Below, piece by piece: positions 19,758 to 63,409 of a stretch of 64,000 nt of DNA. The notes under the pieces are model-generated. The model did not search any database. It was not told the DNA's origin and worked only from the letters and a program-made list of their open reading frames with translations. The first letter of the stretch is position 1. Each line of letters begins with the position of its first letter. A program made the position numbers and the translations under genes. Origin of the DNA: an uncultured Bacteroidales bacterium (GTDB taxonomy: Bacteria > Bacteroidota > Bacteroidia > Bacteroidales > Paludibacteraceae); assembly GCA_902780235.1 (NCBI GenBank), contig CACZEL010000004.1:9402-73401 (forward strand), read 5' to 3'.

Positions 19758-20705
19758 TCAGGCTACATTGAACTGACTTCCGCCGATAAACTCACGCAGA
19801 ATAGAGGTGCGCGGAATATAAGACGCTTCGAGTCCTTCGAAGAAACTGAGGTAGAAAAGGAGTCGTTTCGCCACCTCATATTCCTTGGAAGAAGCAGGAA
19901 CGGTCTGCAGCGCCACTTCCACCGCATAGCGGATCGCCGGCAGTTCGTACATCATCGAGGTATCGAAGCGGGCATCTGCCTCTTTCTTGAACGGTTCAAT
20001 CCATTTCTTCTCCCCTGCACGCACAGAAGGCCAGTTGGCAATGGTCTGCTGCGGACTCTTGCCACGCGTACGGAAATCGCGACTCATGCGGCGCAGCAGA
20101 CGATGGACGTGCGTCGGGATCCATTTATGTCCGTCCAGCGACACGGGACTCATCGGCGAAGCGAAGATCTTGTACTTACATGCCGGATCGATATGCTCGG
20201 TCAGGATCGGATTGAGCGCATGGATACCTTCGATGACCATGATGGTGTCGGGTTCCAGTCTGAGCGTATCGCCCAAGTACTCCCGTTTCTCTGCCGCAAA
20301 ATTGAAGGTAGGCAACGCGATCTCCTTGCCGTCAATCAGGGCCTTCAGATCCGCCTCCAGTTGTTTGATATCCAATGCATAGACGGACTCGTCATCGCGT
20401 TTACCGTTCTCATCGCGGGGAATGAGTTCGCTATTCAGATACCAGTTATCAAGCGACAGAGCCACCGGCTGTTTGCCTTGCGCCAGCAGTTCGAGGCATA
20501 GTTTATGACTGGTACTCGTTTTTCCGCTCGAAGAAGGTCCGGCAATCAGCACGACACGTACCTCCGGGCGCGAACAGATCTTACGCGCGATACGCGCGAG
20601 CTGGTCATGATGGTACTTCTCTCCCATCGCCACCAGTTCGGCAGCATGACGGGACTCAATCATCTCATTGATATACGCCACACGGCGTTTCTCTCTGTTT
20701 ATCAT
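19758..20705 (-). CDS. Uridine-kinase/PRK-family nucleoside kinase-like protein
   Basis: VVLIAGPSSSGKTSTSHKL P-loop, ..IMVIEGIHALNP.. . The start overlaps the priA stop (ATGA). Confidence 0.7.
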   Translation of the reverse strand: MINREKRRVAYINEMIESRHAAELVAMGEKYHHDQLARIARKICSRPEVRVVLIAGPSSSGKTSTSHKLCLELLAQGKQPVALSLDNWYLNSELIPRDENGKRDDESVYALDIKQLEADLKALIDGKEIALPTFNFAAEKREYLGDTLRLEPDTIMVIEGIHALNPILTEHIDPACKYKIFASPMSPVSLDGHKWIPTHVHRLLRRMSRDFRTRGKSPQQTIANWPSVRAGEKKWIEPFKKEADARFDTSMMYELPAIRYAVEVALQTVPASSKEYEVAKRLLFYLSFFEGLEASYIPRTSILREFIGGSQFNVA

Positions 20706-22681
20706 ATAGGGTCAATATCAATAATAATTTTCACGTTTTTATTCGATGGAACCGACCAAACTTGATCAATCGCTTCCTGCAATCGCCGTTTGGCTTCAGC
20801 CATATTGGCAGTCGATTCAATACGCAGGGTCAGTTCGCGGATATAATAGGCTTGCACGCGTTCCACGGATGGAATAATAACCGCAGAGATGCGCCTACCG
20901 AAGATCTGGGACAGGTAAGCCTGCAACTGCGTCGCCGTGGCATGTGCCAGCGGCTGTTTGGAATGACGCATCTGGATACGAATCATCCGATGAAATGGGG
21001 GATAATGGAACATTTGGCGTTCCGCTAATTGCTGGTTATAGAGCGCGATATAATCATGTTCCCGCACCATCTGCAGCACCTTATTGGAGGGATCAAAAGT
21101 CTGAATCCACACTTCCCCTTTGGTACCTTTGCGTCCTGCCCGACCTGCTACCTGCTCCAGCATCTGGAACGCCCGTTCGTACGCCCGGAAATCGGGTTGG
21201 TTAAAGAGCGGATCGGCATTGAGCACCGCTACCAAGCGTACATCATCAAAATGTAAACCCTTGGTCACCATCTGCGTACCGACTAAGATGTCGCATTCAT
21301 GGTTGGCAAAGGCATTGATGATATCCTGATACGCGGACTTATTCCGCGTGGTATCCAGATCCATACGCAGCACCCGTGCCTCGGGGAAGAGCGTCTGTAT
21401 CTCATCTTCGATGCGTTCGGTACCGATACCGATGGCTTTGAGTTCACCGCCACATTGCGGACAAACGGCTGGTACGGCAGTATGATAACCGCAGTAATGA
21501 CACCGCATCTCCCGCGGATGCAGATGGAGCGTCATCGGCACATCACATTGGACGCAACGAGGCGGTTCGCCGCATTGCATGCACTGGATCTGCGGCGCAT
21601 AGCCGCGTCGGTTCTGAAAGAGAATAACCTGTTTATGATCCGCCAGACATTGCCGTATACGCTCTACGAGCGGATCGGAGAAATGCCCATACATCTCCTT
21701 GCGCTCATACTGCCGCTTAAGGTCAATCAGTTGGATGTCAGGTAACTCGACCCCACCGAAACGTTCGGTAAGGGAAACCAATCCATACACCCCTTTCTGC
21801 GCCAGGTAATACGACTCGATGGAAGGCGTAGCCGTGCCCAAGAGCACTTTGGCCTTATGCAGTTGCGCCAACATGATCGCTGCCGCACGGGCATGATAAC
21901 GAGGATTCGGTTCTGCCTGCTTATAACTGGGTTCATGCTCTTCATCCACGATAACAAGACCGAGATCTTGTATTGGCAAAAAGATTGCACTACGGGCGCC
22001 AATTACTACGTAATTAGTTGAAAGTTGAAAGTTCTGCCGATCTGCTGACGCCGTATGGAAAGTTGAAAGTTTTTTATATCTCACCTCCCGTTCGGCATCG
22101 GTGAAACGGCTGTGATAGACGATGAGCCGATCGCCGAAGATGGTCTGTAGACGAGAGGTGAGTTGGGTAGTCAAAGCGATCTCCGGCACCAGATACAGCA
22201 CGTTCTTGCCCGCCTCCAACTGCGCCTGAATCAGATGAATATATATATCCGTTTTGCCTCCGGACGTCACCCCATGCAGCAGCACGATATCCTTACCCGA
22301 ACGCCAAAAAGTCTCGATTTCATCGGCACTTTTCGCTTGTGCCGGCGATAAGTCATGCATAGGTTCGATAGGACCCGTATAGGGTGCAAGCGCCTTACGT
22401 GCCCGTTTGGGCGGGTCAGTGAGTCGTTTATCCAAACCACCGGGCAAAGCCGCAGCCATCACTTCACCCAAAGAGCACATGTAATAACGGCTCATCCATT
22501 GCCATAAAGCCAACTGCTCCCGCGTAACGACCGGCGCCGTATCGACTACAGACAGGATCGGGCGTATCTTATCGGCAAAAGCCGGTTCGATGGGTTCTGT
22601 ATGTTCGCGCAAAACCACCCCTCGCAGTTCTTTCTTGAGTAGCGGCACGATGACGCGTGTACCCGGCGCAGGTATAGACAA
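20702..22681 (-). CDS. priA: Primosomal protein N' (replication restart helicase PriA)
   Basis: LHGVTSGGKT (Walker A), IVDEEH, a Cys4 cluster (CVQCDVP..CHYCGY..CPQCG), QMVTKGLHF and GRAGR. The conserved N-terminus continues upstream of TTG 22681 to about 22750 with no canonical start codon (see findings). Confidence 0.9.
   Translation of the reverse strand: MSIPAPGTRVIVPLLKKELRGVVLREHTEPIEPAFADKIRPILSVVDTAPVVTREQLALWQWMSRYYMCSLGEVMAAALPGGLDKRLTDPPKRARKALAPYTGPIEPMHDLSPAQAKSADEIETFWRSGKDIVLLHGVTSGGKTDIYIHLIQAQLEAGKNVLYLVPEIALTTQLTSRLQTIFGDRLIVYHSRFTDAEREVRYKKLSTFHTASADRQNFQLSTNYVVIGARSAIFLPIQDLGLVIVDEEHEPSYKQAEPNPRYHARAAAIMLAQLHKAKVLLGTATPSIESYYLAQKGVYGLVSLTERFGGVELPDIQLIDLKRQYERKEMYGHFSDPLVERIRQCLADHKQVILFQNRRGYAPQIQCMQCGEPPRCVQCDVPMTLHLHPREMRCHYCGYHTAVPAVCPQCGGELKAIGIGTERIEDEIQTLFPEARVLRMDLDTTRNKSAYQDIINAFANHECDILVGTQMVTKGLHFDDVRLVAVLNADPLFNQPDFRAYERAFQMLEQVAGRAGRKGTKGEVWIQTFDPSNKVLQMVREHDYIALYNQQLAERQMFHYPPFHRMIRIQMRHSKQPLAHATATQLQAYLSQIFGRRISAVIIPSVERVQAYYIRELTLRIESTANMAEAKRRLQEAIDQVWSVPSNKNVKIIIDIDPI
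22014..22075. repeat. Repeat-core-repeat insertion inside priA, in frame
   Basis: AGTTGAAAGTTGAAAGTT - CTGCCGATCTGCTGACGCCGTATG - GAAAGTTGAAAGTTTTTT. It encodes ..LSTFHTASADRQNFQLSTNY.. . Confidence 0.85.
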
Positions 22682-22742
22682 ACCCTCCGGAACGCTATAG
22701 GTATAACAATCCCGAAGCGCTAAAGGTAATATGATATCAACG

Positions 22743-22786
22743 TAGTTGATAATTGATGATTTCTGATTTATGATTTTTGATTTTCC
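22743..22786. repeat. Tandem block at the tdk/priA junction
   Basis: GTTGATAATTGATGATTTCTGATTTATGATTTTTGATTTTCC (TGATTGA family). It contains the tdk stop. Confidence 0.85.
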
Positions 22787-28214: not shown

Positions 28215-28216
28215 AA

Positions 28217-28240
28217 CCTTTCACTTTTCACCTTTCACCT
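28217..28240. repeat. Heptamer block at the hydrolase/recJ junction
   Basis: CCTTTCACTTTTCACCTTTCACCT (complement of the GAAAGGT family). Confidence 0.85.
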
Positions 28241-29027
28241 CGTATTCGTCCGCTTCCTGCCATTGTGGCAACACTTCCCTAAAATGTCTCAGTTTTTCGA
28301 TGGACAAGTCCACGATCTTCGTGCCTTCTTCGTAGTCCTCGAAGCCTGCTACATCCTTGAGCCATGTGTCGTACGCCGCCGAATGCCCGTTATAATCGAG
28401 TTGCAGTCCGTCCGTACCGACCATATTGACGCCGATGCCGTAACAGTGGTTCTCCGCTGCACGGGCTGCCAAGAGTGCATCCCAGTACTGGATTCGTATC
28501 GTCGGCCAGCATGCCACTACGATCAGGATGTCGTACAAGTTATGCTTATCCTGCCTCAGCCACACCGGAAAACGCAGGTCGTAGCATACTGCCAAACGGA
28601 TCTTGACCCCGCGATACTCGAAGATCTTCCGTTCCTGACCTGGCGTGAAGAACTCCGCTTCCCCACCGCTCGCATACAGATGATGCTTGTCGTAATACTG
28701 CGGCGCGCTATTAGGCGAGAAGAGAAAACCGCGGTTTCGAAGTCCGCTAACCCTTTCATCCCCTAATCCGCTAACCCTTACGATCAACGAGCCCACGATA
28801 GCGAGGTTATACTCATCCGCCATCCGTTGCAGTGCTTGGCATGTCGGTCCGCTTTCCCACGGTTCTGCCAACCCGGGACGGTCGGTACAGAAACCCGTAC
28901 TGAACATCTCCGGCACAACGGCGATGTCCGCCTGACCGGCTATCGCCCGCAGACGTTCGTCCAGCAGACCTATGTTCGCTTGCGGATCTGCCCAAACAAT
29001 CGGATATTGGAGAAGAGCGATTTTCAC
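28221..29027 (-). CDS. Carbon-nitrogen hydrolase (nitrilase superfamily, YafV/omega-amidase-like)
   Basis: MKIALLQYPIVWADP..., VVPEMFSTGF (Glu), YDKHHL (Lys), LAVCYDLRFP (Cys). Confidence 0.85.
   Translation of the reverse strand: MKIALLQYPIVWADPQANIGLLDERLRAIAGQADIAVVPEMFSTGFCTDRPGLAEPWESGPTCQALQRMADEYNLAIVGSLIVRVSGLGDERVSGLRNRGFLFSPNSAPQYYDKHHLYASGGEAEFFTPGQERKIFEYRGVKIRLAVCYDLRFPVWLRQDKHNLYDILIVVACWPTIRIQYWDALLAARAAENHCYGIGVNMVGTDGLQLDYNGHSAAYDTWLKDVAGFEDYEEGTKIVDLSIEKLRHFREVLPQWQEADEYEVKGEK
28742..28780. repeat. Repeat-core-repeat insertion inside the hydrolase gene, in frame
   Basis: CCGCTAACCCTT - TCATCCCCTAAT - CCGCTAACCCTT. It encodes ..VRVSGLGDERVSGL.. . Confidence 0.85.
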
Positions 29028-30357: not shown

Positions 30358-30405
30358 GCAAGTATTTTATTAAAAATTTTTCAACTATTTTTTCAAAATC
30401 GGCTG

Positions 30406-30437
30406 CAAAGATACAAAATATCTTTGATATACGCAAG
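30406..30437 (-). promoter_or_regulatory. Promoter for the nfeD-floA... minus-strand array
   Basis: The minus strand reads CTTG-N20-TATCTTTG. Confidence 0.6.
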
Positions 30438-30518: not shown

Positions 30519-30564
30519 AGTTGAAAGGTGAAAGTTGAAAGTTGAAAGAAGGTGAAAGGTAAAA
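30519..30564. repeat. Heptamer block in the topA leader
   Basis: AGTTGAAAGGTGAAAGTTGAAAGTTGAAAGAAGGTGAAAGGTAAAA. Confidence 0.9.
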
Positions 30565-39961: not shown

Positions 39962-40024
39962 AGCGCACCCGATCCACAGCCAAGCGCGGTGGGAGGCAAA
40001 GAAATCGTAAATATGTAATAAGAT

Positions 40025-45354: not shown

Positions 45355-45364
45355 TTTATCATTA

Positions 45365-48235: not shown

Positions 48236-48267
48236 ACTATCTCAAACTTTCAAACTATCTCAAACTC
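48228..48267. repeat. Junction block (TCAAAC family)
   Basis: ACTTTCAAACTATCTCAAACTTTCAAACTATCTCAAACTC. It spans the stop of one gene and the start of the next. Confidence 0.9.
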
Positions 48268-49252: not shown

Positions 49253-49273
49253 ATTTGCGCATTTTCACATTTA
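49244..49273. repeat. Junction block
   Basis: CATTTTCACATTTGCGCATTTTCACATTTA. It supplies both the start and the upstream stop. Confidence 0.85.
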
Positions 49274-49666
49274 ATCGATAATCGCCAGTTTGAGGGTAGT
49301 GGTTGCAATCATCTCATCCGCCACCTTCGTCGTACACTCGATGAGGCTGATATTCATCACTTCCTGGACCAACACCACTTCGGTAGTCAGCGTCTCACCT
49401 ATCTTCGGCAAACGGTTTGCCTGCATCGTCTTCACGGCGCCGATGAAGCCTATCTTGTTTCCTCCGCAATAACCGGCCCGTACGGCACAGGTCTGCGCCG
49501 CATTCTCCATCAGTCCGGCTAAGGACAGATGACCGTTGGTCACCAAGGGGCAGCCTTCTCGGATCGTGAACGCACTGACCGCACGTTCGTTATTAACGCT
49601 CACCACTTCGTCAATGAAGACGAACGGCGGACGTTGGGGGATATATGTCTCAACTCCAGAAATCAT
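49271..49666 (-). CDS. Hotdog-fold dehydratase (ApeI/ApeP-like)
   Basis: ..PQRPPFVFIDEV.., about 130 aa. Confidence 0.65.
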   Translation of the reverse strand: MISGVETYIPQRPPFVFIDEVVSVNNERAVSAFTIREGCPLVTNGHLSLAGLMENAAQTCAVRAGYCGGNKIGFIGAVKTMQANRLPKIGETLTTEVVLVQEVMNISLIECTTKVADEMIATTTLKLAIID

Positions 49667-50525: not shown

Positions 50526-50764
50526 TAGAGGTGCGCCTCGATATAATCGTAAAAGTCCTGTAATGTCTTAACGGTCTTTAACTCTTCTGCCTTGGGTTTG
50601 AAGCCGAACTCGCGGTCAATCAGCACCACGATATCCACAAAATCCAAGGAGTCAATCTCCAGATCGCTCTTGAGCGATGCATCCGGAGTGAGAAGGCTCT
50701 CTTCAATCTCAAATTCCTCCACAAGGAGGTTGTTCACTTTCGCAATAATCTCTTGTTTTGTCAT
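50525..50764 (-). CDS. Acyl carrier protein
   Basis: ..LEIDSLDFVDIV.. . Confidence 0.85.
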   Translation of the reverse strand: MTKQEIIAKVNNLLVEEFEIEESLLTPDASLKSDLEIDSLDFVDIVVLIDREFGFKPKAEELKTVKTLQDFYDYIEAHL

Positions 50765-51885: not shown

Positions 51886-51898
51886 TTACTAATTCACT

Positions 51899-51927
51899 TT
51901 GGCTATTAGCCATTAGCTGTTAGCTTT
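51899..51927. repeat. Junction block
   Basis: TTGGCTATTAGCCATTAGCTGTTAGCTTT encodes the FabF-like C-terminus ..KLTANG* and its stop. Confidence 0.9.
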
Positions 51928-53135
51928 CGTAAAACAATGGCGCTGTTCGTGCCGCCAAAACCGAAACTGTTACTTAAGACAGTCTGGAGCGGCGTCTCGA
52001 TCGTTTGGGTAGCCAGACGCAGATCGGCTGCACAGGGATCGACATGCTCGAGGTTGATGTTGGGCGCCACAAATCCGTGCTGCATCATCAGGATGCTATA
52101 CACCGCCTCACTGGCGCCGGCCATCCAGCACTCATGTCCGGTCATGGACTTGGTGCTGCTGACCCATGCCTGCTTGCCGCCGAAAAGGCGTGCGAGGGCA
52201 ATTGCCTCTTCTTCATCCCCTTGTTTGGTAGAAGTAGCATGGGCATTGACATAATCGATCTGATCGGCAGTGACACCGGCATCCGCCAACGCACGCTGCA
52301 TGGCGATGAACGAACCTTCGCTGCTCGGTTGCGAGATACCGCCTCCGTTGCTGGAGAATCCGTATCCGCATACCTCCGCAAGGATCGTTGCTCCACGAGC
52401 GACAGCGTGGTCGTAGTCTTCGAGCACCAAGGCTGCCGCACCGCCGCTGGGTACTAATCCGTTACGGTCGAGATCGAACGGCCTGCTGGCTTTGGTGGGT
52501 TCATCGACCCGCCCGGAGAACGTGCCTAAGGCATCAAAAGCAGCCATCGAGTACGGGTTCACCTCCTGCGCACCGCCCACCAGCACCATCTCTTGCAGCC
52601 CCTGGTGAATGAACATTGCCCCTAAACCGATCGAGTGGCTACCGCTCGCACAGGCAGCACTGACCGAGAAATTGATACCCCGCAGATGGAAGATCGTACT
52701 CAGGTTCATGTTCACCGTCGAGTTCATCGACTGGAAGATCAAACCGCTACCCAACAAAGCCGTGTCATGCTTCTCCAGCATCGTCTCGTGCATCTCCACC
52801 GTCGCTTGCGCCGTACTGTCGTTACCGAAGAGGATACCTACCTCGTGGTCCAACAGATACTGCTCCTCAATGCCGGCTTGCTCAAACGCTTCGCGGGCTG
52901 CCATATAGGCATACATCGCTTCCTGCGACATACCCGTTCGCAGACGACGATGCAAGAGGTTCTTCAGGTCCGGCGTCTCCACCATACCTGTCAGCGGACT
53001 GCGAAAACCGTACTCCTTGCGTGCCTCGTCATATCCGATACCGCTGCGTCCCATACGCAACGATTGAGTCACTTCCTCTTTATTCCGGCCGATACACGAC
53101 CAGATACCCATGCCTGTTACTACTACCCTTTTCAC
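51906..53135 (-). CDS. Beta-ketoacyl-ACP synthase II-like (FabF family)
   Basis: GTG start MKRVVVTGMGIW, ..SAACASGSH.., ..NAHATSTKQGD.., ..GHECWMAG.., ..FGFGGTN.. . Confidence 0.9.
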   Translation of the reverse strand: MKRVVVTGMGIWSCIGRNKEEVTQSLRMGRSGIGYDEARKEYGFRSPLTGMVETPDLKNLLHRRLRTGMSQEAMYAYMAAREAFEQAGIEEQYLLDHEVGILFGNDSTAQATVEMHETMLEKHDTALLGSGLIFQSMNSTVNMNLSTIFHLRGINFSVSAACASGSHSIGLGAMFIHQGLQEMVLVGGAQEVNPYSMAAFDALGTFSGRVDEPTKASRPFDLDRNGLVPSGGAAALVLEDYDHAVARGATILAEVCGYGFSSNGGGISQPSSEGSFIAMQRALADAGVTADQIDYVNAHATSTKQGDEEEAIALARLFGGKQAWVSSTKSMTGHECWMAGASEAVYSILMMQHGFVAPNINLEHVDPCAADLRLATQTIETPLQTVLSNSFGFGGTNSAIVLRKLTANG

Positions 53136-53165
53136 CTTTCAACTTTCACCTTTCAACTTTCAATT
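53128..53165. repeat. Junction block
   Basis: CTTTTCACCTTTCAACTTTCACCTTTCAACTTTCAATT. Confidence 0.9.
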
Positions 53166-53913
53166 ACCCCATTCCTCCTGCTACGGCAATGACTTGCCCG
53201 GTTATATAAGCCGCTTCGTCAGAGCAGAGAAAACTAACCAATGCCGCCACCTCTTCGGGTTGACCGAAGCGTCCGGCCGGGATGTTTTTTTTCAGTTCCG
53301 CCTCATCCAGATCGGCCGTCATGTCGGTGGCGATGAAACCCGGTGCGACAGCATTGACCGTCACTTTGCGAACCGCCACTTCTTTGCTCAGCGCTTTGGT
53401 AGCACCGATCAAGGCCGCTTTCGCCGCCGAGTAGTTCGCTTGTCCCGGCAGACCACTCACGCCCGAGATAGAGGCTATATTGACGATACGTCCTTTGCGG
53501 GCCCGAACCATCGCCGGCAGTACATGATGCGTGATATAATAGAGCCCTTCGGTCGTCGTATGCAGCACGTCGTGCCAGTCATCTTCACCCATAAAAACCA
53601 TCAGTCCGTCGCGACGGATACCGGCGTTATTGACGAGCACGGAGATATGTGCTCCTTCGTGCGCCGCATCCCATGCCGTCAAGGCCGCTTCAATCGCTTT
53701 GCCGTCTGCCACGTCGAAAGGCAGTAACTCTGCCGAACCGCCTGCCGCCTCGATAGCGGCTTTGGTAGCCTCAGCAGCAGAGGTGTTGCTATGGTAGTTG
53801 AGGATCACAGTGTAACCGTCTCTTGCCAAGCGTTCCGCGATCGACCGGCCTATTCCCCGACTGGCTCCGGTGACCAATGCGTAAGCAGTATTTACCATTT
53901 TGTCATTTACCAT
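53164..53913 (-). CDS. fabG: 3-oxoacyl-ACP reductase (SDR, FabG-like)
   Basis: ..ALVTGASRGIG.., ..NNAG.., ..YSAAKAA.. . The start codon lies in the repeat, and ATG 53898 is an alternative. Confidence 0.9.
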   Translation of the reverse strand: MVNDKMVNTAYALVTGASRGIGRSIAERLARDGYTVILNYHSNTSAAEATKAAIEAAGGSAELLPFDVADGKAIEAALTAWDAAHEGAHISVLVNNAGIRRDGLMVFMGEDDWHDVLHTTTEGLYYITHHVLPAMVRARKGRIVNIASISGVSGLPGQANYSAAKAALIGATKALSKEVAVRKVTVNAVAPGFIATDMTADLDEAELKKNIPAGRFGQPEEVAALVSFLCSDEAAYITGQVIAVAGGMG

Positions 53914-53916
53914 TTA
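53889..53916. repeat. Junction block
   Basis: TATTTACCATTTTGTCATTTACCATTTA is translated as MVNDKMVN. Confidence 0.9.
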
Positions 53917-55440
53917 AAATGTACGTAAGTAGCGTTCTATGTCAGCGATATCTTCGTAGAACGGTGTATCTTCGATGATCGTCGGCGTGATGGCGCGGAT
54001 GGCATCGTACTGCATTCTGGTAGCAGGAGCCAATTGGTCCTGAATACCAAGACAGTCCACCGCTTGCGCCAACGCCAGGTACAAGATCGCCAGCACCTGA
54101 TAGCAGTTGTCAATCACCTGCGCACACAGTTCGGCGCTGTTCGTACCCATCGAGACGATATCCTGGTTGTCGTTATTATTCGGAATAGAGTGTACGTAGT
54201 TCGGCATCGCCAAAGTCTGGCACTCCGCCGTCGTACTAGTGGCCGTGAACTGGCATGCCTGGATGCCGTAGTTCAGACCTAAGGTTCCTAAATTGAGGAA
54301 CGGAGGTAAGATACCGTTGATACGGTCATGGCAGAGGTAGTTCAGTTGTCGCTCACTGATCATCGCCAGACGCACCATCGCGATCTTCATCTTATCTGCT
54401 TCCAGCGATATGTAATCGCCGTGGAAATTACCGCCATGATAAACGTTCTGCGTTACGGGATCAACAATCGGGTTGTCGCTCGCAGCATTCAGTTCTTCTT
54501 CGATCACCATGCGGCTGTACGCCAGCGTGTCTGCGATCGGACCCAGGATCTGCGGGGCACAACGCAAGGAATAATAGGCCTGTACCTTGTCCTTGAACAC
54601 ATGCTGCCCTTCATCCATTAATCCGTTCACCCGTTCACCATTATACAACAAGTTCTCCCTTTTCTGCAGACGCTTGCTACCCTTACTGAGTTTACGCATC
54701 TGTTCGGCGATCAGGATCTGTCCGCCGTGCCGACGGGCCTCATTGAGCGGCGCCGCCATCAGGTCGTCATAACTGCCGGCTATCTCGTTCATCCATACAG
54801 CTGCCAGAGTAGCCCAATACAGCAGTTGTTCAGCGTTCATTTGATTGACCGCACTGATACCAGTCATCACGCTGGTTCCGTTGGTGCAACTCAGTCCTTC
54901 GCGCAGATGGATCGTCATCGGTTGCAACCCGCATTCGTCTAATACCTCTTTGGTGGGACGCCATGCGCCTTGGTAATGCACTTTTCCTTCCCCGATCAGG
55001 CACAAGGCGATATGGGCTAACTGCACCAGATCACCGCTGGCACCCACACTGCCGTGCTTGGGAATGAAAGGACAGATACCGCGGTTGATAAACTCCGTCA
55101 GCAGGTTCACCAACTCCGGATGGATACCGCTCTTGCATTGCGCGAACGAGCCCACGCGCGCGAGCATAGCCGCGCGTACAAAATTATCCTCCAGCGGTTC
55201 GCCCGCGCCTGTGGCGTGAGAGCGGATAATGTTATACTGCAACTCACGGAGATGGTCATCCGCTACACGCCACTGCGCCATCGGACCAAAACCCGTGTTG
55301 ATGCCGTATATCACCTTATCGCTAGAGAAACGCTGCAGAAAGGCAAAGCAGTCCGCTATGCCCTTCTGCGTCTCTATATCCCATTCCAAACGACCATTCC
55401 CATAGAGAATGTCGTGAATGAGTTCAATCGTGATTGTCAT
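53914..55440 (-). CDS. Aromatic amino acid ammonia-lyase (HAL/TAL/PAL family, MIO cofactor)
   Basis: ..GSVGASGDLVQLAH.. (Ala-Ser-Gly MIO triad), ..YGINTGFG.. . Confidence 0.9.
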   Translation of the reverse strand: MTITIELIHDILYGNGRLEWDIETQKGIADCFAFLQRFSSDKVIYGINTGFGPMAQWRVADDHLRELQYNIIRSHATGAGEPLEDNFVRAAMLARVGSFAQCKSGIHPELVNLLTEFINRGICPFIPKHGSVGASGDLVQLAHIALCLIGEGKVHYQGAWRPTKEVLDECGLQPMTIHLREGLSCTNGTSVMTGISAVNQMNAEQLLYWATLAAVWMNEIAGSYDDLMAAPLNEARRHGGQILIAEQMRKLSKGSKRLQKRENLLYNGERVNGLMDEGQHVFKDKVQAYYSLRCAPQILGPIADTLAYSRMVIEEELNAASDNPIVDPVTQNVYHGGNFHGDYISLEADKMKIAMVRLAMISERQLNYLCHDRINGILPPFLNLGTLGLNYGIQACQFTATSTTAECQTLAMPNYVHSIPNNNDNQDIVSMGTNSAELCAQVIDNCYQVLAILYLALAQAVDCLGIQDQLAPATRMQYDAIRAITPTIIEDTPFYEDIADIERYLRTF

Positions 55441-56930
55441 CGTTTATAGTTTTCCCACTTCGTATTACGCATGTCGCCGCTCTTGAGGAACTCCTCATGC
55501 ATAGCGAAGGCGCAACTTAACTCATGTTGTGTCTGACCGTGACGTGCGATCTTGAGGTAGTCCCGCAGCATCTCGCGATACTCAGGTGCTACACAGTTAT
55601 TGATGATCTCTTCAGCGCGCTGACGCGGACTCTTACCACGCAGATCGGCTACACCCTGTTCGGTCACCAGCACCTTCACGCTGTGCTCACTATGGTCGAG
55701 GTGCGTCACCATCGGTACGATGGACGAGATAGCGCCGTTCTTCGCCGTCGAAGCGGTGGTGAAGATAGACAGGTACGAGTTACGGGCGAAATCACCCGAA
55801 CCGCCGATACCGTTCATCATCTTCGTACCGCAAACATGCGTCGAGTTGACGTTGCCGTAGATGTCTGCTTCGAGCGCCGTGTTGATGGCGATGATACCCA
55901 AACGACGGGCGATCTCCGGACTGTTGGACGTCTCTTGCGGACGAAGCAACAACTTGTCACGATAGAAATCAAGGTCAGCCAGTACTTCTGCCATCTTGCT
56001 CTCTACCAGACGGAGAGAGCATCCGCTCGCGAACTTACAATGTCCGGCTTTGATGAGATCCACCACGCTATCCTGGATCACCTCCGAGTACATCTCAAAG
56101 GGCGGGATATTGGGGTTCTTGCCCAGTTCGCCAAGGACCGCATTCGCTACGTTTCCTACACCCGATTGGATCGGCAAGAAGGAAGCCGGGATACGTCCCG
56201 CTTTCATCTCTGCCTCCAGGAAAGCCGCTACGTTGGCGCCGATCTTAGCCGTCGTCTCATCTACCGGCGTGAAAGCCGGGATCTCATTTGGACGGTTGGT
56301 CTTCACCACCGCTGCGATCTTCGCCGGATCCACTTTGATATGGTCCGAACCGCAACGATCCGATGGCTTATAGATCGGGATCTCGCGACGGCAAGGAGGA
56401 TCAAGCGGCTCATACAAGTCATGCATGCCACGCATCGAAGCGGGGAACATCTCGTTTAACTCGATGATGATCTTATCCGCCAAACGACAGATGGTCGGCA
56501 TGATACCTACACCGGCAGCCGGAACGATCGTTCCGTCTTCCCCTACATACGATGCCTCGATGATCGCCCAGTTGGGCTTCGGAAGGAATCCGTAACGCAG
56601 GTCCTGCGGCATATGACTCAGGTGGCCGTCGAAATAGTGCGTTCCTTCGGCATTGATCTCGTCACGCATCGACTTGTTCGATTGGTACGGCGTACGGAAC
56701 TCGACCGCGTGAGCGCGTGCTAACGCACCGTCACAACTGTCACCCATCGACGCACCGGTCTCCAGACCTACACGGAAAGGAATACCCTGCTCGTGCAGAC
56801 GCTCTGCGCGTTGTGCCAAAGCAAACGGCACTGCCTTGGGCACTCCGGTAGCAGTAAAACCACCGAGACCCAAGACATCACCATGTTGTATTAATTCGGC
56901 AGCTTGCTCTGCCGACATGTATTTTAACAT
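55437..56930 (-). CDS. Acetyl-CoA hydrolase/transferase family protein (succinate/acetate CoA-transferase-like)
   Basis: ..GDVLGLGGFTATGVPKA.., ..IAINTALEADIYGNVNS.., ..GIGGSGDF.. . Start set to MLKYMSAEQ, because the track's N-terminus reads through a repeat. Confidence 0.85.
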   Translation of the reverse strand: MLKYMSAEQAAELIQHGDVLGLGGFTATGVPKAVPFALAQRAERLHEQGIPFRVGLETGASMGDSCDGALARAHAVEFRTPYQSNKSMRDEINAEGTHYFDGHLSHMPQDLRYGFLPKPNWAIIEASYVGEDGTIVPAAGVGIMPTICRLADKIIIELNEMFPASMRGMHDLYEPLDPPCRREIPIYKPSDRCGSDHIKVDPAKIAAVVKTNRPNEIPAFTPVDETTAKIGANVAAFLEAEMKAGRIPASFLPIQSGVGNVANAVLGELGKNPNIPPFEMYSEVIQDSVVDLIKAGHCKFASGCSLRLVESKMAEVLADLDFYRDKLLLRPQETSNSPEIARRLGIIAINTALEADIYGNVNSTHVCGTKMMNGIGGSGDFARNSYLSIFTTASTAKNGAISSIVPMVTHLDHSEHSVKVLVTEQGVADLRGKSPRQRAEEIINNCVAPEYREMLRDYLKIARHGQTQHELSCAFAMHEEFLKSGDMRNTKWENYKR

Positions 56931-56931
56931 T

Positions 56932-56975
56932 TTCTTATTTTCGCATTTTTTCATTTTCTCATTTTCTCATTTAAG
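56932..56975. repeat. Left flank block of four-helix-bundle gene B
   Basis: ..CGCATTTTTTCATTTTCTCATTTTCTCATTTAAG. The inner 14 nt, CATTTTCTCATTTA (56960-56973), are a perfect inverted match to 57356-57369. Confidence 0.9.
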
Positions 56976-57353
56976 CTATGACGCTTGAGAAGGAATGATA
57001 TCTCGCTTTATTTTGAACGTACTAATAGATTTAGTAGTTATTTTACACAACTCTAAACATTCGTCATAAAGCGGCTGCACTCTGGATTTTGGAAGCATCT
57101 CTGTTTCCATAATGATATCTAACCAATGTGCTGTTTCATCTATTTCCTCTTCCACTATCTTTAACTTATTCACAAAATCTTTTTCAGATTTAGCTAAACA
57201 AGCAGCTCTATAATTAGCAGCAGGGGACGTTCCTGAACGAACTATTTGACGCGCAATTGCCCAAGCCGATATGGTATTAGGCATAGCATCTACCATTCTA
57301 ATAATCCTTATAGAAAAGGCACGGAAACGTTCTTTTAATTCATCTTCCTGCAT
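56976..57353 (-). CDS. Four-helix-bundle protein, 23S rRNA-IVS / Avd family (copy B)
   Basis: ..IARQIVRSGTSPAANYRAACLAKSEKDFVNKLKIVEEEIDETAHWL.. . Confidence 0.85.
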   Translation of the reverse strand: MQEDELKERFRAFSIRIIRMVDAMPNTISAWAIARQIVRSGTSPAANYRAACLAKSEKDFVNKLKIVEEEIDETAHWLDIIMETEMLPKSRVQPLYDECLELCKITTKSISTFKIKRDIIPSQAS

Positions 57354-57394
57354 ACTAAATGAGAAAATGCGAAAATGAGTAAATGAATAAATGA
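57354..57394. repeat. Right flank block of gene B (inverted)
   Basis: ACTAAATGAGAAAATGCGAAAATGAGTAAATGAATAAATGA. Confidence 0.9.
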
Positions 57395-58414: not shown

Positions 58415-58528
58415 ATGTTTGATGTTGTTTGATATTGTTTGACATTGTTTGACATTGTTTGATGTCGTTTGAGGTTGTTTGATCTTGTTAACGATCTCAA
58501 ACCTTCAAACTATCTCAAACCTTCAAAC
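58415..58528. repeat. Empty polarity-switching block (GTTTGA then TCAAAC)
   Basis: (N4)GTTTGA 10-mers x7, a switch at TTGTTAACGATC, then CTCAAACCTTCAAAC.. . The 28-nt core at 58486-58513 is identical to 63473-63500. Confidence 0.9.
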
Positions 58529-59603
58529 GACTTGCGTAGTGTCCACGAATCAGCACATGATGGTTGTGGATCGGGTTGGTCAGGAAATACTGACTCACTT
58601 CGGGTGTAGCCTTGATCCAAACCTGCGTACGGCAGAGGTTGGGCTCGAACTGACAACGCTCGAGTTCCACATCCACTGCTAACAAACGCTGCATGTCGCC
58701 GCTCATCTTGAGAAGCGTGTAGTCGCCTGTCGGCAGATCGCCGTGGATCGCTACACCGATACCCGACTCGAAATGCGTGGTGTACTCATGCTTCTCGGTC
58801 ATACCCAAGGGCAGCGTACAGTGCGCGAACAGCATCTCGCCGTCGGCTTGGATACGTGCCGGATTGACTTGGAAGCATAACTCACCCGTCAGACGCTTGG
58901 CGATCATCATCGTCAGCAGGGTCGGTATATCGCCTTCGCATGCTGCCGGAATACCTTCGTCATTGAGTTTGCTGAGCGCGATACAACCCGTGTTCTTAAC
59001 CGTGGTCAACAGGTCAAAACAACGCAGTGTCACGCCCTGCAGATCATATTGCTCCACAAGTTCTTTGAGACGCGCGTAGATAGCCTCAGCACCTTTCATG
59101 CCCGGATCCACCTCGCCCAATTTCGTCATCTCTTCGATCGCGATGTCCACCAATTCGATGTTCATCCGCTTCAGCACCTCGGTATAATTGACGCCCGATG
59201 AAATCAACCAATCGGACGGTTTACCGACAACGCCCAGACGCAGCGGTTGGTCGCTATGCAGCAATTTCTCCGAAGGCTGAATACTGACTACTGACGGCTG
59301 ATCACTGATCGCCAGATCGGTATCCTCCGCGTTCATCATCACTTTGCCGACCCCCTGATGCTGACGAACATAACTCAGGATCTCCAGCGAAGCGGCCAAG
59401 GAGTTACTATGCCCGCTGACCATCAGATAAACCGGTTGGCTCAGGTCAATCAACCCGTCTTCCACCAACTGAACGAACTTAGCCTCCGTTCCGCCGGTCA
59501 GAATAGCCACTACCTGATGGTCATTCAGAAACGCCTGCGGCAATTCAAACGGCACCGTCAGCGTCTCTTTATGCATCTCCGATGATAAAATATGCAAGAT
59601 CAT
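58515..59603 (-). CDS. L-arabinose/L-fucose isomerase-superfamily-like protein, paralog 1
   Basis: ..ACEGDIPTLL.. and C-terminal ..NHHVLIRGH.. resemble the AraA/FucI catalytic-domain layout. Substrate unknown. Confidence 0.5.
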   Translation of the reverse strand: MILHILSSEMHKETLTVPFELPQAFLNDHQVVAILTGGTEAKFVQLVEDGLIDLSQPVYLMVSGHSNSLAASLEILSYVRQHQGVGKVMMNAEDTDLAISDQPSVVSIQPSEKLLHSDQPLRLGVVGKPSDWLISSGVNYTEVLKRMNIELVDIAIEEMTKLGEVDPGMKGAEAIYARLKELVEQYDLQGVTLRCFDLLTTVKNTGCIALSKLNDEGIPAACEGDIPTLLTMMIAKRLTGELCFQVNPARIQADGEMLFAHCTLPLGMTEKHEYTTHFESGIGVAIHGDLPTGDYTLLKMSGDMQRLLAVDVELERCQFEPNLCRTQVWIKATPEVSQYFLTNPIHNHHVLIRGHYASRLKV

Positions 59604-60688
59604 TCTCTCCAGAATTTAGCAGCGTGATGACCCTTGATCAATACATGGTGGTCGGACAGCGGATTGGTCAGCAGGTACTGGCTCACGATAGGCGTGGACT
59701 GAACCCAGATCTGCGTGCGGCACATGTTCTGCTCATATTGGCATCGGGTCACTTGGACATTCACCGCCAGCAGACGCTTCATGTCGTGACTCAGCTTAAC
59801 CAAGGTATAATCGCCCGGCTCCACTTCGCCGTGGATAGCGACACCGATACCCGACTCGAAATGCGTGGTGTACTCATGCTTCTTGGTCATCTTCAGAGGT
59901 ATGGTACATTTCGCCAGCAGGATCTTTCCGTCCGGTTGGATACGTGCCGGACTACCCATGAAGGCCGGTTCGCCGGTCAGTTTACGGCAAGCCATCATCG
60001 TCAGCAATACCGGGATATCGCCCTCACAACCGGCTGCAATACCCTCGTCCTGCAACTTGCTGACTGCTACACAACCCGTGTTCTTCAGCGTCGTGAAGAG
60101 CTCGAAACAACGAACAGTGATACCGTCCAACTTGTATTTGGCGATGATCTCTTTCTCGCGCTCGTAGATGGCTTCTGCACCTTTCATACCGGGATCGACC
60201 TCACCGAGGCTTGCCATCTCGTCAAACGGGATATCCACCAACTCGCAGTTCATCGTAGCCAGCACGGCTTTGTAATCCACACCCGAAGCGATCAACCAGT
60301 CTTGCGACTTGCCGACTACACCGAGGCGCAACTTCTTCTCGTTCTTCAGCACTTTCTCCAGCGGCACGCGGGTAAGCGATGCGGTCTCGCTCTCATCTAC
60401 AAAAACCGTATCATTCGGATGCTGCATGATCTTCGCGATTCCGTTGCGCTGACGAATGAAACTCAGGATCTCCAACGCTGCCGGAAGAGAGTTACTGAAT
60501 CCGCCGACTAACAGATAAACAGGGCGCTTCAGGTCTATCTTCTTCTCGCGAACGAGATCCACGAACATAGCCTCTGTTCCTCCGGACAGAACGGCTACTA
60601 CTTGGTTTTCTTCGATAAACGAATCCGACACCTTAAACGGCACTTCCAATACCTCCGTGTGGAGTTGGGAACGTAATTTGTGTAACAT
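59600..60688 (-). CDS. L-arabinose/L-fucose isomerase-superfamily-like protein, paralog 2
   Basis: Collinear with paralog 1 along its full length. ATGA overlap. Confidence 0.5.
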   Translation of the reverse strand: MLHKLRSQLHTEVLEVPFKVSDSFIEENQVVAVLSGGTEAMFVDLVREKKIDLKRPVYLLVGGFSNSLPAALEILSFIRQRNGIAKIMQHPNDTVFVDESETASLTRVPLEKVLKNEKKLRLGVVGKSQDWLIASGVDYKAVLATMNCELVDIPFDEMASLGEVDPGMKGAEAIYEREKEIIAKYKLDGITVRCFELFTTLKNTGCVAVSKLQDEGIAAGCEGDIPVLLTMMACRKLTGEPAFMGSPARIQPDGKILLAKCTIPLKMTKKHEYTTHFESGIGVAIHGEVEPGDYTLVKLSHDMKRLLAVNVQVTRCQYEQNMCRTQIWVQSTPIVSQYLLTNPLSDHHVLIKGHHAAKFWRE

Positions 60689-60751
60689 GGTTCTATTATT
60701 TTATGGGTTTAACTGTTCTCTGTTTTTTAATCGTGTACATAAATGACGCCG

Positions 60752-60783
60752 CAAAATTACAAAAAAAATTTGATATGTGCAAA
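60752..60783 (-). promoter_or_regulatory. Promoter for the isomerase-like pair
   Basis: The minus strand reads TTTG-N20-TAATTTTG. Confidence 0.6.
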
Positions 60784-60819
60784 TTTATTTATAAATTTTG
60801 TAAAATTATGTGCAAAAAC

Positions 60820-60850: not shown

Positions 60851-60854
60851 CAGC

Positions 60855-61832
60855 ATGAAAAAGAATCTTTTCGTTCGTCTTATCACATGGCTCGCCATCA
60901 TGGCGGTGCTGACCTTGATAGCGATGGGGGCTTGGATGCTCCTTAGCGGGAACAGTCAGAGTACAGTCAGTCTCAAATGGCTGCAGTTCGTTCAGACGGT
61001 TGCTACTTTTTTAATCCCGCCTGTGCTCTGCGCTTGGCTGTGGGACGCCGATCGACGTCCCTTCGCGTGGCTTAAGATGGACAAGCGCGTCGATGGGTCG
61101 CTCTTTGCTTTGGCGGTCGTCCTCATGGTCTGCGCCGTACCGGCTATCAACCTCTTGGCGGATCTCAACAGCCGTATCACGCTGCCGGAGAGCATGGCGG
61201 CATGGGAGGCGAAGATGAAATCGATGGAAGCCGCAGCGGCAGCGCTCACCGAACGCTTCCTGCAAGTCGATAATCTCGGCGGACTCATCATCAACCTCGG
61301 TCTGATGGCCCTCCTTCCCGCCCTCTCCGAAGAACTCTCCTTCCGCGGCACCCTGCAGCAGCTAATAGCCAATAGCCAAGAGCTAAGAGCCAATAGCCAA
61401 CAGCTAAGAGCCAATAGCCAACAGTTAAGAGCCAAGAGCCAAGAGCTAATAGCCAATAGCCAACAGCTAATAGCCAATAGCCATATGGCTATATGGATCA
61501 CTGCTATTATATTTTCAGCGATACATATGCAATTTTACGGTTTCATCCCGCGTATGCTCATGGGCGCGATGTTCGGCTATGTCTTCGTCTGGACGGGTAG
61601 CCTGTGGGTGCCGATCGTCATGCATTTCACCAACAACGCACTCGCGGTTGTGGTTTACTACATAACAGCCAATAGCCAAGAGCTAATAGCCAATAGCCAA
61701 CAGCTAACAGCCAATAACCAAAATATCGCCGACACGATAGGTGCCGGCGATACATGGTGGTTAGGCGTCATCAGCCTGATCCTTACATCTCTGGGTCTAC
61801 TAATATTCTACCGCAGAACTCACAAGGAATAA
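60855..61832 (+). CDS. CPBP (CAAX/Abi) family intramembrane glutamic endopeptidase
   Basis: Motif 1 SEELSFRG, motif 2 FSAIH, motif 3 HFTNN. Two long repeat insertions lie in loops. Confidence 0.8.
   Translation: MKKNLFVRLITWLAIMAVLTLIAMGAWMLLSGNSQSTVSLKWLQFVQTVATFLIPPVLCAWLWDADRRPFAWLKMDKRVDGSLFALAVVLMVCAVPAINLLADLNSRITLPESMAAWEAKMKSMEAAAAALTERFLQVDNLGGLIINLGLMALLPALSEELSFRGTLQQLIANSQELRANSQQLRANSQQLRAKSQELIANSQQLIANSHMAIWITAIIFSAIHMQFYGFIPRMLMGAMFGYVFVWTGSLWVPIVMHFTNNALAVVVYYITANSQELIANSQQLTANNQNIADTIGAGDTWWLGVISLILTSLGLLIFYRRTHKE
61358..61496. repeat. In-frame 21-nt-period block between CPBP motifs 1 and 2
   Basis: Encodes IANSQELRANSQQLRANSQQLRAKSQELIANSQQLIANSH. Each 21-mer is three degenerate CCAATAG-type heptamers with the TAG removed. 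Confidence 0.95.
61664..61721. repeat. In-frame 21-nt-period block after CPBP motif 3
   Basis: Encodes ITANSQELIANSQQLTANNQN. Confidence 0.95.
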
Positions 61833-62517: not shown

Positions 62518-62530
62518 ACTATAATAGTTT

Positions 62531-62660
62531 TTTGTTTGACATTGTTGGATGTTGTTTGAGGTTGTTTGAGATCGTTTGAGATTGTTTGAGATTGTTTGAG
62601 ATCGTTTAAACCTTCAAACCTTCAAACTTCAAACTACCTCAAACCCTCAAACTTCAAACC
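62531..62660. repeat. Empty polarity-switching block (GTTTGA then TCAAAC)
   Basis: TTTGTTTGACATTGTTGGATGTTGTTTGAGGTTGTTTGAGATCGTTTGAG... switches at about 62607 to AAACCTTCAAACCTTCAAACTTCAAAC... . It contains the nif3 stop. Confidence 0.9.
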
Positions 62661-63409
62661 AAAATGGGACTTTTGTCCCTCTCACTAATGATGCATTTTA
62701 CGCCAAGGGGTTCGATCAGGTCGCGGAAGATCTCCCGTGCATGTCGCTCGCTGTACCAATGGTCGATATCGATGAGTCCGATGCGCCGGTCGGCGTCCTG
62801 AAACTCATGGTACTTGCAGTCTGCTGTCAGATACACATCCGCCCCTTGCTCGATAGCGGTATCGATAAACTCAGCCCCGCTTCCGCCACAAACGGCTACG
62901 GTCCGGATCAACTCCTTCGCCGGACGGGTATAACGGACGTACGAGCAGTCGAGCGTCTTGCGGATTTGTTCGATGAAATCGAGATAATTGACCGGTTCCG
63001 GCAGGCTACCTATCGCCCCTAAACCGCTCTCGGTCAATAATCGATAATCCCTAATCCCTAATCGTTCCGCCAGCCTCGTGTTGATCCCTCCAACCACCGA
63101 GTCAAGGTTCGTATGCGCAGAATAGATAGCGATATCATGCTTGATCGCCATCTCTACGACACGTGCCTGCGGCGTCTGACCGCAGACCTGCTTCAAACCG
63201 TGAAACAACAAAGGATGATGGGAGATAATGAGTTGACATCCATATTCAATAGCTTCACTGACCACATCTTCCGTGATGTCTGTGGTCAGGAGGACAGACG
63301 TAATGTCTCGTCCCGTGTCACCTACCTGCATTCCCGAGTTATCCCAACTCTCCTGGGCACTCCGTGGCGCTACAGATTCTATGCTATTGATAATGGCTCT
63401 TAAGAGCAC
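62654..63409 (-). CDS. Nif3-like dinuclear metal-centre protein (GTP cyclohydrolase I type 2 family)
   Basis: ..AQESWDNSGMQVG.., ..ISHHPLLF.., ..YSAHTNLD.., ..DHW.SE. . GTG start. Confidence 0.9.
   Translation of the reverse strand: MLLRAIINSIESVAPRSAQESWDNSGMQVGDTGRDITSVLLTTDITEDVVSEAIEYGCQLIISHHPLLFHGLKQVCGQTPQARVVEMAIKHDIAIYSAHTNLDSVVGGINTRLAERLGIRDYRLLTESGLGAIGSLPEPVNYLDFIEQIRKTLDCSYVRYTRPAKELIRTVAVCGGSGAEFIDTAIEQGADVYLTADCKYHEFQDADRRIGLIDIDHWYSERHAREIFRDLIEPLGVKCIISERDKSPILV
63036..63064. repeat. In-frame heptamer block in nif3
   Basis: AATAATCGATAATCCCTAATCCCTAATCG (complement of GATTAGG) encodes ..GIRDYRLLT.. . Confidence 0.85.

Follow-up and report, generated by a model that had tools for sequence, protein, structure and literature searches.

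In-frame heptanucleotide repeat arrays in conserved genes of a ruminant-gut Bacteroidales genome and their probable spread by slippage and copying between arrays

Introduction

Tandem repeats whose unit is not a multiple of three are usually seen as frame-breaking, acting as phase-variation switches or being bound to spacers. A 64-kb stretch of a Paludibacteraceae (Bacteroidales) genome from the ruminant gut (GenBank assembly GCA_902780235.1, contig CACZEL010000004.1, positions 9,402 to 73,401; hereinafter, the window) raises the question of how arrays of 7-nucleotide (nt) units came to lie in frame, and at scale, within genes for replication, repair, secretion regulation, and biosynthesis in a clade of gut commensals. 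An earlier note on this DNA, made from the sequence alone, proposed that the same repeat blocks had been inserted into conserved genes and kept open by selection. According to the present analysis, the blocks probably represent a lineage-specific, proliferating heptanucleotide satellite that changes by slippage and by copying from array to array, selection retaining what keeps the frame and gives tolerable peptides.

Heptamer Arrays in the Window and in Related Loci

Tandem Repeats Finder returned 116 rows of short-period arrays in the window, with period 7 predominating. The number of period-7 arrays was 37, against a mean of 0.3 and a maximum of 1 in 40 dinucleotide-preserving shuffles, and the control periods 5, 6, and 9 gave 0, 3, and 4 arrays, respectively. 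A looser scan yielded 41 merged arrays, namely, 20 lying wholly within open reading frames (ORFs), 9 crossing ORF ends, where they often provide the stop codon, and 12 located in intergenic DNA, even though the latter makes up only 4141 nt of the window. The unit families NAGCYAA, TTCAACT/CCTTTCA, ATCCACT, CAYCAAT, GTCGAAA, and TTAGGGA recur at many loci.

Related loci are designated here by L numbers. In a scan of a genome collection with the PorX protein of the window, the matches comprised only metagenome-assembled genomes (MAGs) of Bacteroidales, and the PorX proteins of the closest relatives (L001–L014) were 82–89% identical to that of the window. Array density was 0.58 per kb in the window, 0.65 in L012, and 0–0.05 in outgroup Bacteroidales loci. 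Short contigs with related pigment clusters reached up to 2.35 per kb (L092, 3.8 kb), the highest density noted. Identical arrays turn up in independent assemblies from separate studies.

Array-Bearing Genes and Their Orthologs

Pfam analysis bore out the gene identities given earlier (priA, CN-hydrolase of the nitrilase family, PorX with receiver and PglZ domains, NIF3, and Rce1/CPBP protease), indicated a flexirubin-type pigment cluster, and placed the host genes in the housekeeping class rather than among surface or antigen genes. In comparison with close relatives, dN/dS was 0.02–0.43 in all genes tested, which points to purifying selection; therefore, the host genes are not pseudogenes. 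The conserved domains run on in the same frame on either side of the blocks in the alignments of priA, porX, nitrilase, and CPBP/NIF3.

The in-frame blocks reported for priA, the nitrilase-family hydrolase, porX (two), and CPBP (two) have the sequences that the earlier note described, and the range of 20702–63409 that it gave for the phenomenon is too narrow, since the phenomenon reaches obg. Four of its five recurrent peptide words, ANSQ(E/Q)L(I/R), FNFQLST, ITNHQSS/ITNNQSP, and IHYPLST, follow from in-frame translation; the remaining one, VNNKM, was encountered only in a pairwise alignment that included the window KS. About nine pigment-cluster genes with internal arrays were counted, which is near the "at least 10" proposed.

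The segments found in porX, CPBP, priA, nitrilase, and KS are absent from distant orthologs, from homologs with solved structures, and from many close relatives. For these genes the blocks are lineage-specific insertions, as proposed, and the two findings that the earlier note named as refuting, homologous segments in distant taxa and pseudogene hosts, were not obtained. Several blocks replace native sequence, and NIF3 is a different case. The NIF3 segment aligns without gaps to the LG(I/L)xxxxx(L/V)L segment of PDB homologs and relatives, at equal length, so that an insertion is ruled out. Its DNA is identical in L004, and the L012 counterpart is non-periodic and of the same length; the block is a heptamer-periodic native segment.

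The extra segments of the window PorX (9 aa and about 6 aa) have no counterpart in solved PorX structures or in most relatives, and at precisely these two sites the repeat peptides of other clade members are different ones. The CPBP arrays are missing in L004, L037, and all distant orthologs, and L012 has (RTCAGCC)n at both sites. The priA loop of relatives holds LSTF/FQLST, ITNH/SPITN, ISNVQSPISN, or other peptides, and two relatives have none; its SADRQ core is common to species whose flanking arrays differ in family. Structure modeling, applied to priA, placed the insert (aa 206–220) in a coil between a helix and a strand, with a predicted local distance difference test score (pLDDT) below 50, in an AlphaFold2 model of modest quality (mean pLDDT 63). 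At the position of the obg block, relatives have a different, shorter acidic linker, and a minority of relatives have a 7-aa insert in the nitrilase, the sequences differing. In the pigment genes, every array-bearing loop holds lineage-specific segments whose families differ between relatives. The arrays of the MMPL-like exporter substitute for conserved native segments and add no length.

Reading Frame, Strand, and Stop Codons

Since 7 and 3 are coprime, reading a heptamer array yields one cyclic 7-residue peptide whichever frame is used, and therefore only its orientation and total length matter. All genic NAGCYAA heptamers (57/57) were in the sense orientation. The variable base N of this family was T in 1/20 copies at codon phase 0, in 19/37 copies at phases 1 and 2, and in 10/22 intergenic copies; at phase 0, TAG is replaced by GAG, CAG, or AAG. 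The depletion of TAG at phase 0 agrees with the earlier proposal that selection keeps the host ORF open.

In six of the seven window families, genes use the strand that is free of stops in all three frames, its reverse containing stops. As for AGCCAAT, a perfect sense array holds TAG, and the reverse strand is stop-free and encodes the hydrophobic peptide IGYWLLA (grand average of hydropathy, +1.6). The orientation of this family is not explained by stop avoidance alone, and to this extent selection for an open frame is insufficient. If neither strand has stops or a strongly hydrophobic peptide, ORFs hold both orientations, as in the metagenomic contig L143 and for core B, read antisense in L010 (both described below). 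The 21-nt period, regarded earlier as a signature of coding copies only, was dropped as such, since the intergenic arrays at 15201–15322 show the same CTAA/CCAA super-period.

Length Changes between Strains

In near-identical strains, intergenic arrays differed by 7, 7, 28, 7, 7, and 7 nt, and in a single instance by 17 nt; in one intergenic hairpin, each arm was short by one unit, i.e., the loss was paired. By contrast, coding length differences in or next to arrays were all multiples of 3 relative to L081–L083, and no frameshifted alleles were seen at coding arrays in the comparisons with L081–L083 or in those of CPBP. Between the window and L081 (12.9 kb, 312 substitutions), the single net change of array length in coding sequence was an in-frame 27-nt piece with palindromic core A (see below).

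The earlier prediction that copy number would change in steps of 21 nt was borne out by the long CPBP arrays. Among relatives with 84–91% identity, their lengths differed by multiples of 7 aa (21 nt) with few exceptions; for site 1 the slices measured 43/64/71 aa, and for site 2, 39/46/53 aa. The view that coding indels are never multiples of 21 is contradicted by these CPBP relatives, and the other values that fit neither 7 nor 21 came mostly from comparisons of non-homologous arrays.

Exchange of Repeat Families and Dispersed Cores

Different families at one loop were observed in the KS gene at 45712–47439. Its loop aa 136–150 contains (AGCCAAN)4 in the window and in the 97.5% identical strain L081, (CCTTTCA)3–4 in L082, L083, L086, and L087, and (CCAATTA)3 in L084. 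The loop flanks are conserved among the contigs; over the whole region, identity is 92% with L082 and 89% with L083. In L082 and L083, (CCTTTCA)n occupies both array-bearing loops of this KS, and in L086 and L087 likewise the loop at 46996–47026. A nested 18-nt insertion at 47183 in L082 and L083 was set aside as alignment-dependent, the whole array being replaced there. The earlier note spoke of the same blocks; between species the blocks differ, and orthologous loops hold other families.

Some arrays contain small cores of 11–14 nt, one of them palindromic or nearly perfectly so (core A) and another near-palindromic (core B), and the repeat-core-repeat arrangement noted earlier is real, e.g., in priA, obg, and porX. 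Core A, CAGGTCTGACCTG, is a near-perfect palindrome of the exporter gene and an indel between the 97.5% identical strains. The peptide VRP, as core A would encode, is present within ANSQ arrays of CPBP proteins from other species. obg contains core B, G(A/C)(G/C)CGCTTCGCTC, and porX has it twice; it also occurs at another locus, in L010, and its heptamer flanks differ each time. In L010 it lies antisense in an ORF for a putative glycogen synthase. The obg copy is a small stem-loop, GAGCG-CTT-CGCTC, with a perfect 5-bp stem, and the porX stem matches at 4/5 positions.

In porX, about 50 nt of site 2, the non-repeat core included, have been copied to give site 1; site 2 is also present in L005, and L001 has a core-less (GTCGAAA)n array there. 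The cores with differing flanks and the porX copy require copying between arrays or array conversion around a fixed core. Slippage alone cannot yield these patterns.

The metagenomic contig L143 (JGI Ga0209628_10000434) represents another lineage, with a KS identity of 50%. Within 16.7 kb it contains 26 heptamer arrays, which belong to the ATCGCAA/TGCGATA family and nearly all lie within ORFs. Most of them are palindromic pairs, [TGCGATA]n-spacer-[ATCGCAA]n, that lie in frame in conserved KS and other pigment genes. The inserts add up to 38 aa to conserved KS loops, some at the same loops as the window arrays.

Intergenic Arrays and Other Features of the Window

The positions of the features are collected in Table 1. 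The intergenic arrays form inverted pairs and long imperfect hairpins (z = -4.3, -5.2, and -5.8). Among them, the composite arrays, in which a 10-mer is followed by an 8-mer with complementary cores, account for two of these long imperfect hairpins (z = -5.2 and -5.8), and one at 48240 varies by a 10-nt unit between strains. Rfam detected only two tRNAs among known RNA families in the window.

Table 1. Positions of repeat arrays and other features in the window
Feature	Position	Strand	Description
Intergenic inverted arrays	15201–15322		(TTAGCYG)n/(AGCCAAT)n; imperfect hairpin; 7-nt unit variation between strains; non-coding form of NAGCYAA family
obg block	16999–17044	+	[AATGAGG AAATGAG]-CGCTTCGCTC-[AATGATG AAATGATG], in frame
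Intergenic inverted arrays	19588–19652		NAGCYAA family; adjoin tRNA gene
priA block	22014–22075	-	sense (TTCAACT)n, 24-nt core, (TTCAACT)n, read as AGTTGAAAGTTGAAAGTT-core-GAAAGTTGAAAGTT; encodes KLSTFHTASADRQNFQLST
Nitrilase-family hydrolase block	28742–28780	-	21-nt (7-aa) insertion, direct 13-nt repeat; encodes VSGLGDERVSGL
porX site 1	about 35697–35745	+	GTCGAAAGTCAAAAG-ACCGCTTCGCTC-AAAGACAAAAGCC; encodes SQKTASLKDKS; receiver-domain alpha2-beta3 loop
porX site 2	about 36192–36240	+	near-copy of site 1 (36/40 nt); encodes ERKKTASLKDES
Flexirubin-type pigment cluster	38033–55440
Pigment genes with internal arrays	38033–39961, 41319–42185, 42122–44638, 44589–44972, 45712–47439, 47684–48235, 48260–49252, 50761–51885
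Pigment gene with C-terminal array	51906–53135
MMPL-like exporter, NAGCYAA arrays	38522–38557, 38632–38652, 38664–38703, 38843–38874	-
MMPL-like exporter, core A	38653–38665	-	CAGGTCTGACCTG
MMPL-like exporter, (TTCAACT)4, (CCTTTCA)5, (ATCCACT)4	39521–39757	-	conserved segment replaced
BD-FAE hydrolase array	42072–42094	-	signal-peptide region; encodes QQLTAKSQ
GT2/acyltransferase/oxidase fusion, (CATCAAT)n	42736–42782	-	encodes ITNHQSSIINHQ
FabA-like dehydratase arrays	44647–44674, 44909–44930	-	FNFHLSTFN; VESQKSKE
KS 45712–47439, NAGCYAA arrays	46996–47026, 47164–47194	-
ORF 47684–48235, (GAGCCAA)n	48007–48045	-	encodes KEPRAKSQEPTA
KS 48260–49252 arrays	48651–48685, 49019–49050	-	PMANSQ; ITNNQSPITN
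O-methyltransferase array	51306–51339	-	encodes LKANSQQL; 5-aa insertion vs. most orthologs
CPBP site 1	61360–61483	+	six 21-nt units [C/G]AGCTAA-[T/G]AGCCAA-TAGCCAA; 42-aa ANSQxLx array
CPBP site 2	61664–61721	+	ANSQ array, roughly 20 aa
NIF3 segment	63034–63063	-	TTAGGGA TTAGGGA TTATCGA TTATTGA; encodes LGIRDYRLL
Composite intergenic arrays	58416–58530, 62532–62660, 63419–63543, 63929–64000		(TGTTTGAKAT)n then (TCAAACCT)n
PF05635 gene 1	17180–17545	+	arrays at 17133–17166 and 17524–17552, clearly inverted
PF05635 gene 2	56976–57353	-	arrays at 56921–56972 and 57357–57394, clearly inverted
PF05635 gene 3	63535–63927	-	arrays at 63419–63543 and 63929–64000, relative orientation less clear
(AGKTGAA)n, purine-rich	28215–28240, 30519–30564, 53136–53163		immediately upstream of recJ, topA, and KS start codons
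Intergenic motif, roughly 43 nt	851–893, 4860–4902, 6221–6263, 13722–13764, 14662–14704, 19671–19713, 30395–30437, 60741–60783		eight copies
Direct repeat, 148 nt	808–955, 13679–13826		87% identity
Paralogous 362-aa ORFs	58515–59603, 59600–60688		adjacent
tRNA gene	19510–19583	-	repeat of tRNA 3'-end sequence within 19400–19583

Three genes of the PF05635 family (23S rRNA intervening-sequence protein, bAvd-like) lie between short-period arrays. Relatives have no such gene at these positions: in L002, 41 nt separate obg from CLC, and in L004, 47 nt separate the acetyl-CoA hydrolase and aldolase genes. Judged by this arrangement, the PF05635 genes look like inserted cassettes with the ORF in a hairpin loop. 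The suggestion that they drive the arrays is unsupported: no homolog was found in 160 related loci, and identical proteins occupy the same syntenic sites in other assemblies.

The (AGKTGAA)n arrays might influence translation initiation in an organism without strong Shine-Dalgarno use. The 43-nt motif appears to contain the Bacteroidetes promoter elements TTTG and TAnnTTTG. The copies of the 148-nt repeat lie in two spacers about 12.9 kb apart and bracket a DUF3987 gene, a helix-turn-helix (HTH) gene, a MazF-like toxin gene, and a gene for a 2146-aa repeat protein; the region between them may be a mobile island. The 362-aa paralogs have no Pfam match and share a 300-nt stretch with 71% identity; in comparison with their L004 orthologs, one is 60% identical and the other 92%. 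In the spacer upstream of the tRNA gene, beside the array hairpin, the tRNA 3'-end sequence (GTAGCGGGACCCAGGATTGAA...) is repeated, which looks like a partial tRNA duplicate.

The entire pigment cluster is missing in L004 between the exonuclease/PorX genes and the acetyl-CoA hydrolase gene, and is also missing from GCA_017447875.1 (L169). Therefore, it is a presence/absence island within the clade, though densely colonised by arrays.

Origin of the Arrays

A proliferating heptanucleotide satellite of this lineage is, in our estimation, the likely origin of the blocks. Array length changes by slippage in whole 7-nt units, a process shown here by the strain comparisons. Arrays would also be copied or replaced from other arrays, probably by ectopic gene conversion or template switching with the arrays serving as homology; this was shown in single cases, and its general operation is proposed. 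Within genes, arrays occupy a few permissive, variable loops, in frame with the host ORF. Selection would discard the wrong orientation, i.e., the strand with stops or with a hydrophobic peptide, as well as in-frame TAG, so that GAG, CAG, or AAG stands at phase 0. Any change of length that shifts the frame would likewise be removed, and the steps of long coding arrays would therefore be 21 nt. The peptides are most likely passengers that disordered loops tolerate, rather than functional modules.

Several points weigh against this explanation. No direct observation was made of the engine by which one family reaches many loci and families are exchanged at a fixed site, and slippage alone cannot account for the genome-wide sharing of units. 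The swap of (CCTTTCA)n for (AGCCAAN)n has no obvious homology for gene conversion. For the AGCCAAT strand, which bears TAG, use is accounted for only indirectly, via peptide hydrophobicity. The indel spectra rest on small samples, and most comparison sequences are metagenome assemblies, in which repeats are error-prone. Translation of the inserts is suggested by the intact frames and purifying selection.

Another possible, though rather unlikely, explanation is that the blocks are ultra-small mobile elements, like Rickettsia palindromic elements (RPE), MITEs (miniature inverted-repeat transposable elements), or cyanobacterial small dispersed repeats (SDRs), moved by an enzyme acting in trans. 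A hairpin or mini-palindromic core would enter preferred heptamer targets; the arrays would be target-site duplications or excision footprints that later become hot spots, with the PF05635 cassettes possibly as the autonomous form. Such movement would fit the dispersal of the partly palindromic cores inside arrays at unrelated loci and in different species, the 27-nt core-bearing indel between 97.5% identical strains, the copying of porX site 2 to site 1, the complete palindromes inside L143 ORFs, the repeated striking of the same loops by different families, and the three PF05635 genes between inverted arrays, which are missing at the same positions in relatives. However, the blocks show no conserved or fixed ends, no fixed length, and no clear target-site duplications. 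MITEs and repetitive extragenic palindromic (REP) doublets (REPINs) are marked by terminal inverted repeats, such duplications, and a cognate enzyme; the intergenic copies here are hairpins, and an enzyme acting in trans may be encoded elsewhere in the genome. Pfam shows no transposase, REP-associated tyrosine transposase (RAYT), or reverse transcriptase in the 64-kb window, and the involvement of transposases, RAYTs, or diversity-generating retroelements (DGRs) is unsupported. PF05635 homologs occur in 0/160 related loci, including the heavily infested L012, L092, and L143, and the strain differences in intergenic arrays are plain gains and losses of whole units, as slippage predicts. A bolder version holds that 7-nt arrays are actively written and overwritten at fixed hot spots, loops of essential genes included, by a process specific to the genome, and that the arrays and their partly palindromic cores form a new class of ultra-small mobile or templated elements in gut Bacteroidales, possibly linked to the PF05635 cassettes. 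There, ORFs would be open to colonisation by the element because the peptide from a 7-nt unit does not differ among the three frames. This proposal is tentative, and we regard it as doubtful.

It is improbable that the arrays are kept for a function, whether as flexible or heptad-repeat linkers, as binding sites of regulators at the DNA or RNA level, or as contingency loci switched by slippage. Arrays often lie directly upstream of start codons, the intergenic hairpins are stable (z-scores from -4.3 to -5.8), both arms of one hairpin lost a unit together, and a 7-residue period fits coiled-coil heptads. On the other hand, many close relatives lack the coding arrays, and the peptides that sister lineages have at the same site are unrelated; since the peptides are replaced by unrelated sequences, an adaptive role is unlikely. 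Disorder is predicted for the priA insert, no stable RNA fold is seen for the coding CPBP array, and the hosts are housekeeping genes. Frame-keeping 21-nt steps of the long coding arrays and the lack of frameshifted alleles in the strains compared likewise speak against switching.

Finally, an artefact (chance low complexity, assembly error, or decaying pseudogenes open by chance) is scarcely credible: repeats are difficult to assemble from short reads and ORF-based gene calls guarantee stop-free frames by construction, but the same arrays appear in assemblies from different studies, conserved domains stay in one frame across each block, and the shuffle counts and the dN/dS values, which are far below 1, led to the rejection of chance and pseudogenes.

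Significance and Comparison with Known Systems

The arrays illustrate how proteins can be reshaped by slippage-prone repeat DNA and still not be broken. The clade offers natural experiments on which protein loops accept arbitrary insertions, the same loops having been struck in independent lineages, on how selection reshapes mutation (7-nt steps outside genes vs. 21-nt steps inside), and on the joint genome-wide turnover of dispersed microsatellite families. In addition, the arrays inflate protein-length variation, add low-complexity segments, and may mislead the assembly of MAGs, the calling of genes, and the clustering of orthologs from rumen data.

RPE, said to have been described by Ogata et al. 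in 2000, are reportedly discrete palindromic elements of about 100–150 bp that lie in frame in protein-coding genes. Like RPE, the present arrays are short, lineage-specific repeats in frame within conserved functional genes, at positions where loops tolerate them (predicted disordered in priA and length-variable in orthologs elsewhere). In contrast to RPE, the in-ORF arrays of the window are direct 7-nt tandem repeats of 15–125 nt with variable length and no defined palindromic element, they change by slippage, families are swapped at the same site, and the host is a ruminant-gut bacterium rather than an obligate intracellular one. The analogy with RPE drawn in the earlier note is apt; palindromic in-frame inserts occur only in L143, and these are RPE-like in the strict sense.

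At phase-variable contingency loci, gains or losses of units shift the frame and switch the gene, and the hosts are typically surface or restriction genes. The coding arrays differ from such loci in varying by 21-nt or 3n steps, in showing no frameshifted alleles in the strains compared, and in their housekeeping hosts. A DGR is also a poor parallel: there are three PF05635 (Avd-like) genes, but no reverse transcriptase and no template/variable repeat pair in the window.

The SDRs of Nostoc, attributed to Elhai et al. in 2008, are reportedly hairpin-like repeats shorter than 30 nt, nested in other repeats and with no known transposase. Cores A and B resemble them, by description, as very small dispersed sequences nested within arrays; unlike SDRs, the cores are 11–14 nt long, always lie inside heptamer arrays, and are found in ORFs. 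Nostoc SDRs are mentioned in PMC3116915. REP/REPIN sequences and the intragenic small mobile sequences of enterobacteria are inverted-repeat hairpins, some of whose intragenic copies have open frames (PMC3116915; PMC2229807). The intergenic form of the present arrays is also an inverted-repeat hairpin, and some copies are intragenic with an open frame. The arms, however, are tandem arrays rather than a fixed palindrome, and the window contains no RAYT or IS200-like gene.

Heptanucleotide repeat families (PMC4679880) and in-frame repeat insertions (RPE) are already known. The literature search gave no description of in-frame heptamer arrays in Bacteroidales, of conserved loops being occupied on such a scale, of repeat families being exchanged at orthologous loops, or of 7-nt steps contrasting with 21-nt ones. 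The TAACTGA direct repeats of Beggiatoaceae, Cyanobacteria, and some Bacteroidetes consist of a single unit and are overwhelmingly intergenic (MacGregor 2015, PMC4679880). They often lie just upstream of start codons, and their orientation is limited by stops, the reverse strand reading LSVISYQ (PMC4679880). The present arrays are likewise direct heptamer repeats with stop-limited orientation and many copies ahead of start codons, but comprise several units, and in-frame occupation of conserved loops is not described there as a general feature.

The closest parallel in unit length is given by the cyanobacterial short tandemly repeated repetitive (STRR) sequences, or heptanucleotide long simple sequence repeats (SSRs) (Mazel 1990, Mrazek 2007). 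In PMC4679880, they are presented as mainly intergenic, with slippage proposed and a sporadic phylogenetic distribution, and units of a length divisible by three are those expected in coding regions. The arrays analyzed here share with STRR and long SSRs the 7-nt unit, the presence of a few families at many loci, the sporadic distribution, and the change of copy number by whole units, and differ from them in that 20 of the 41 arrays lie wholly inside ORFs of conserved genes and in frame.

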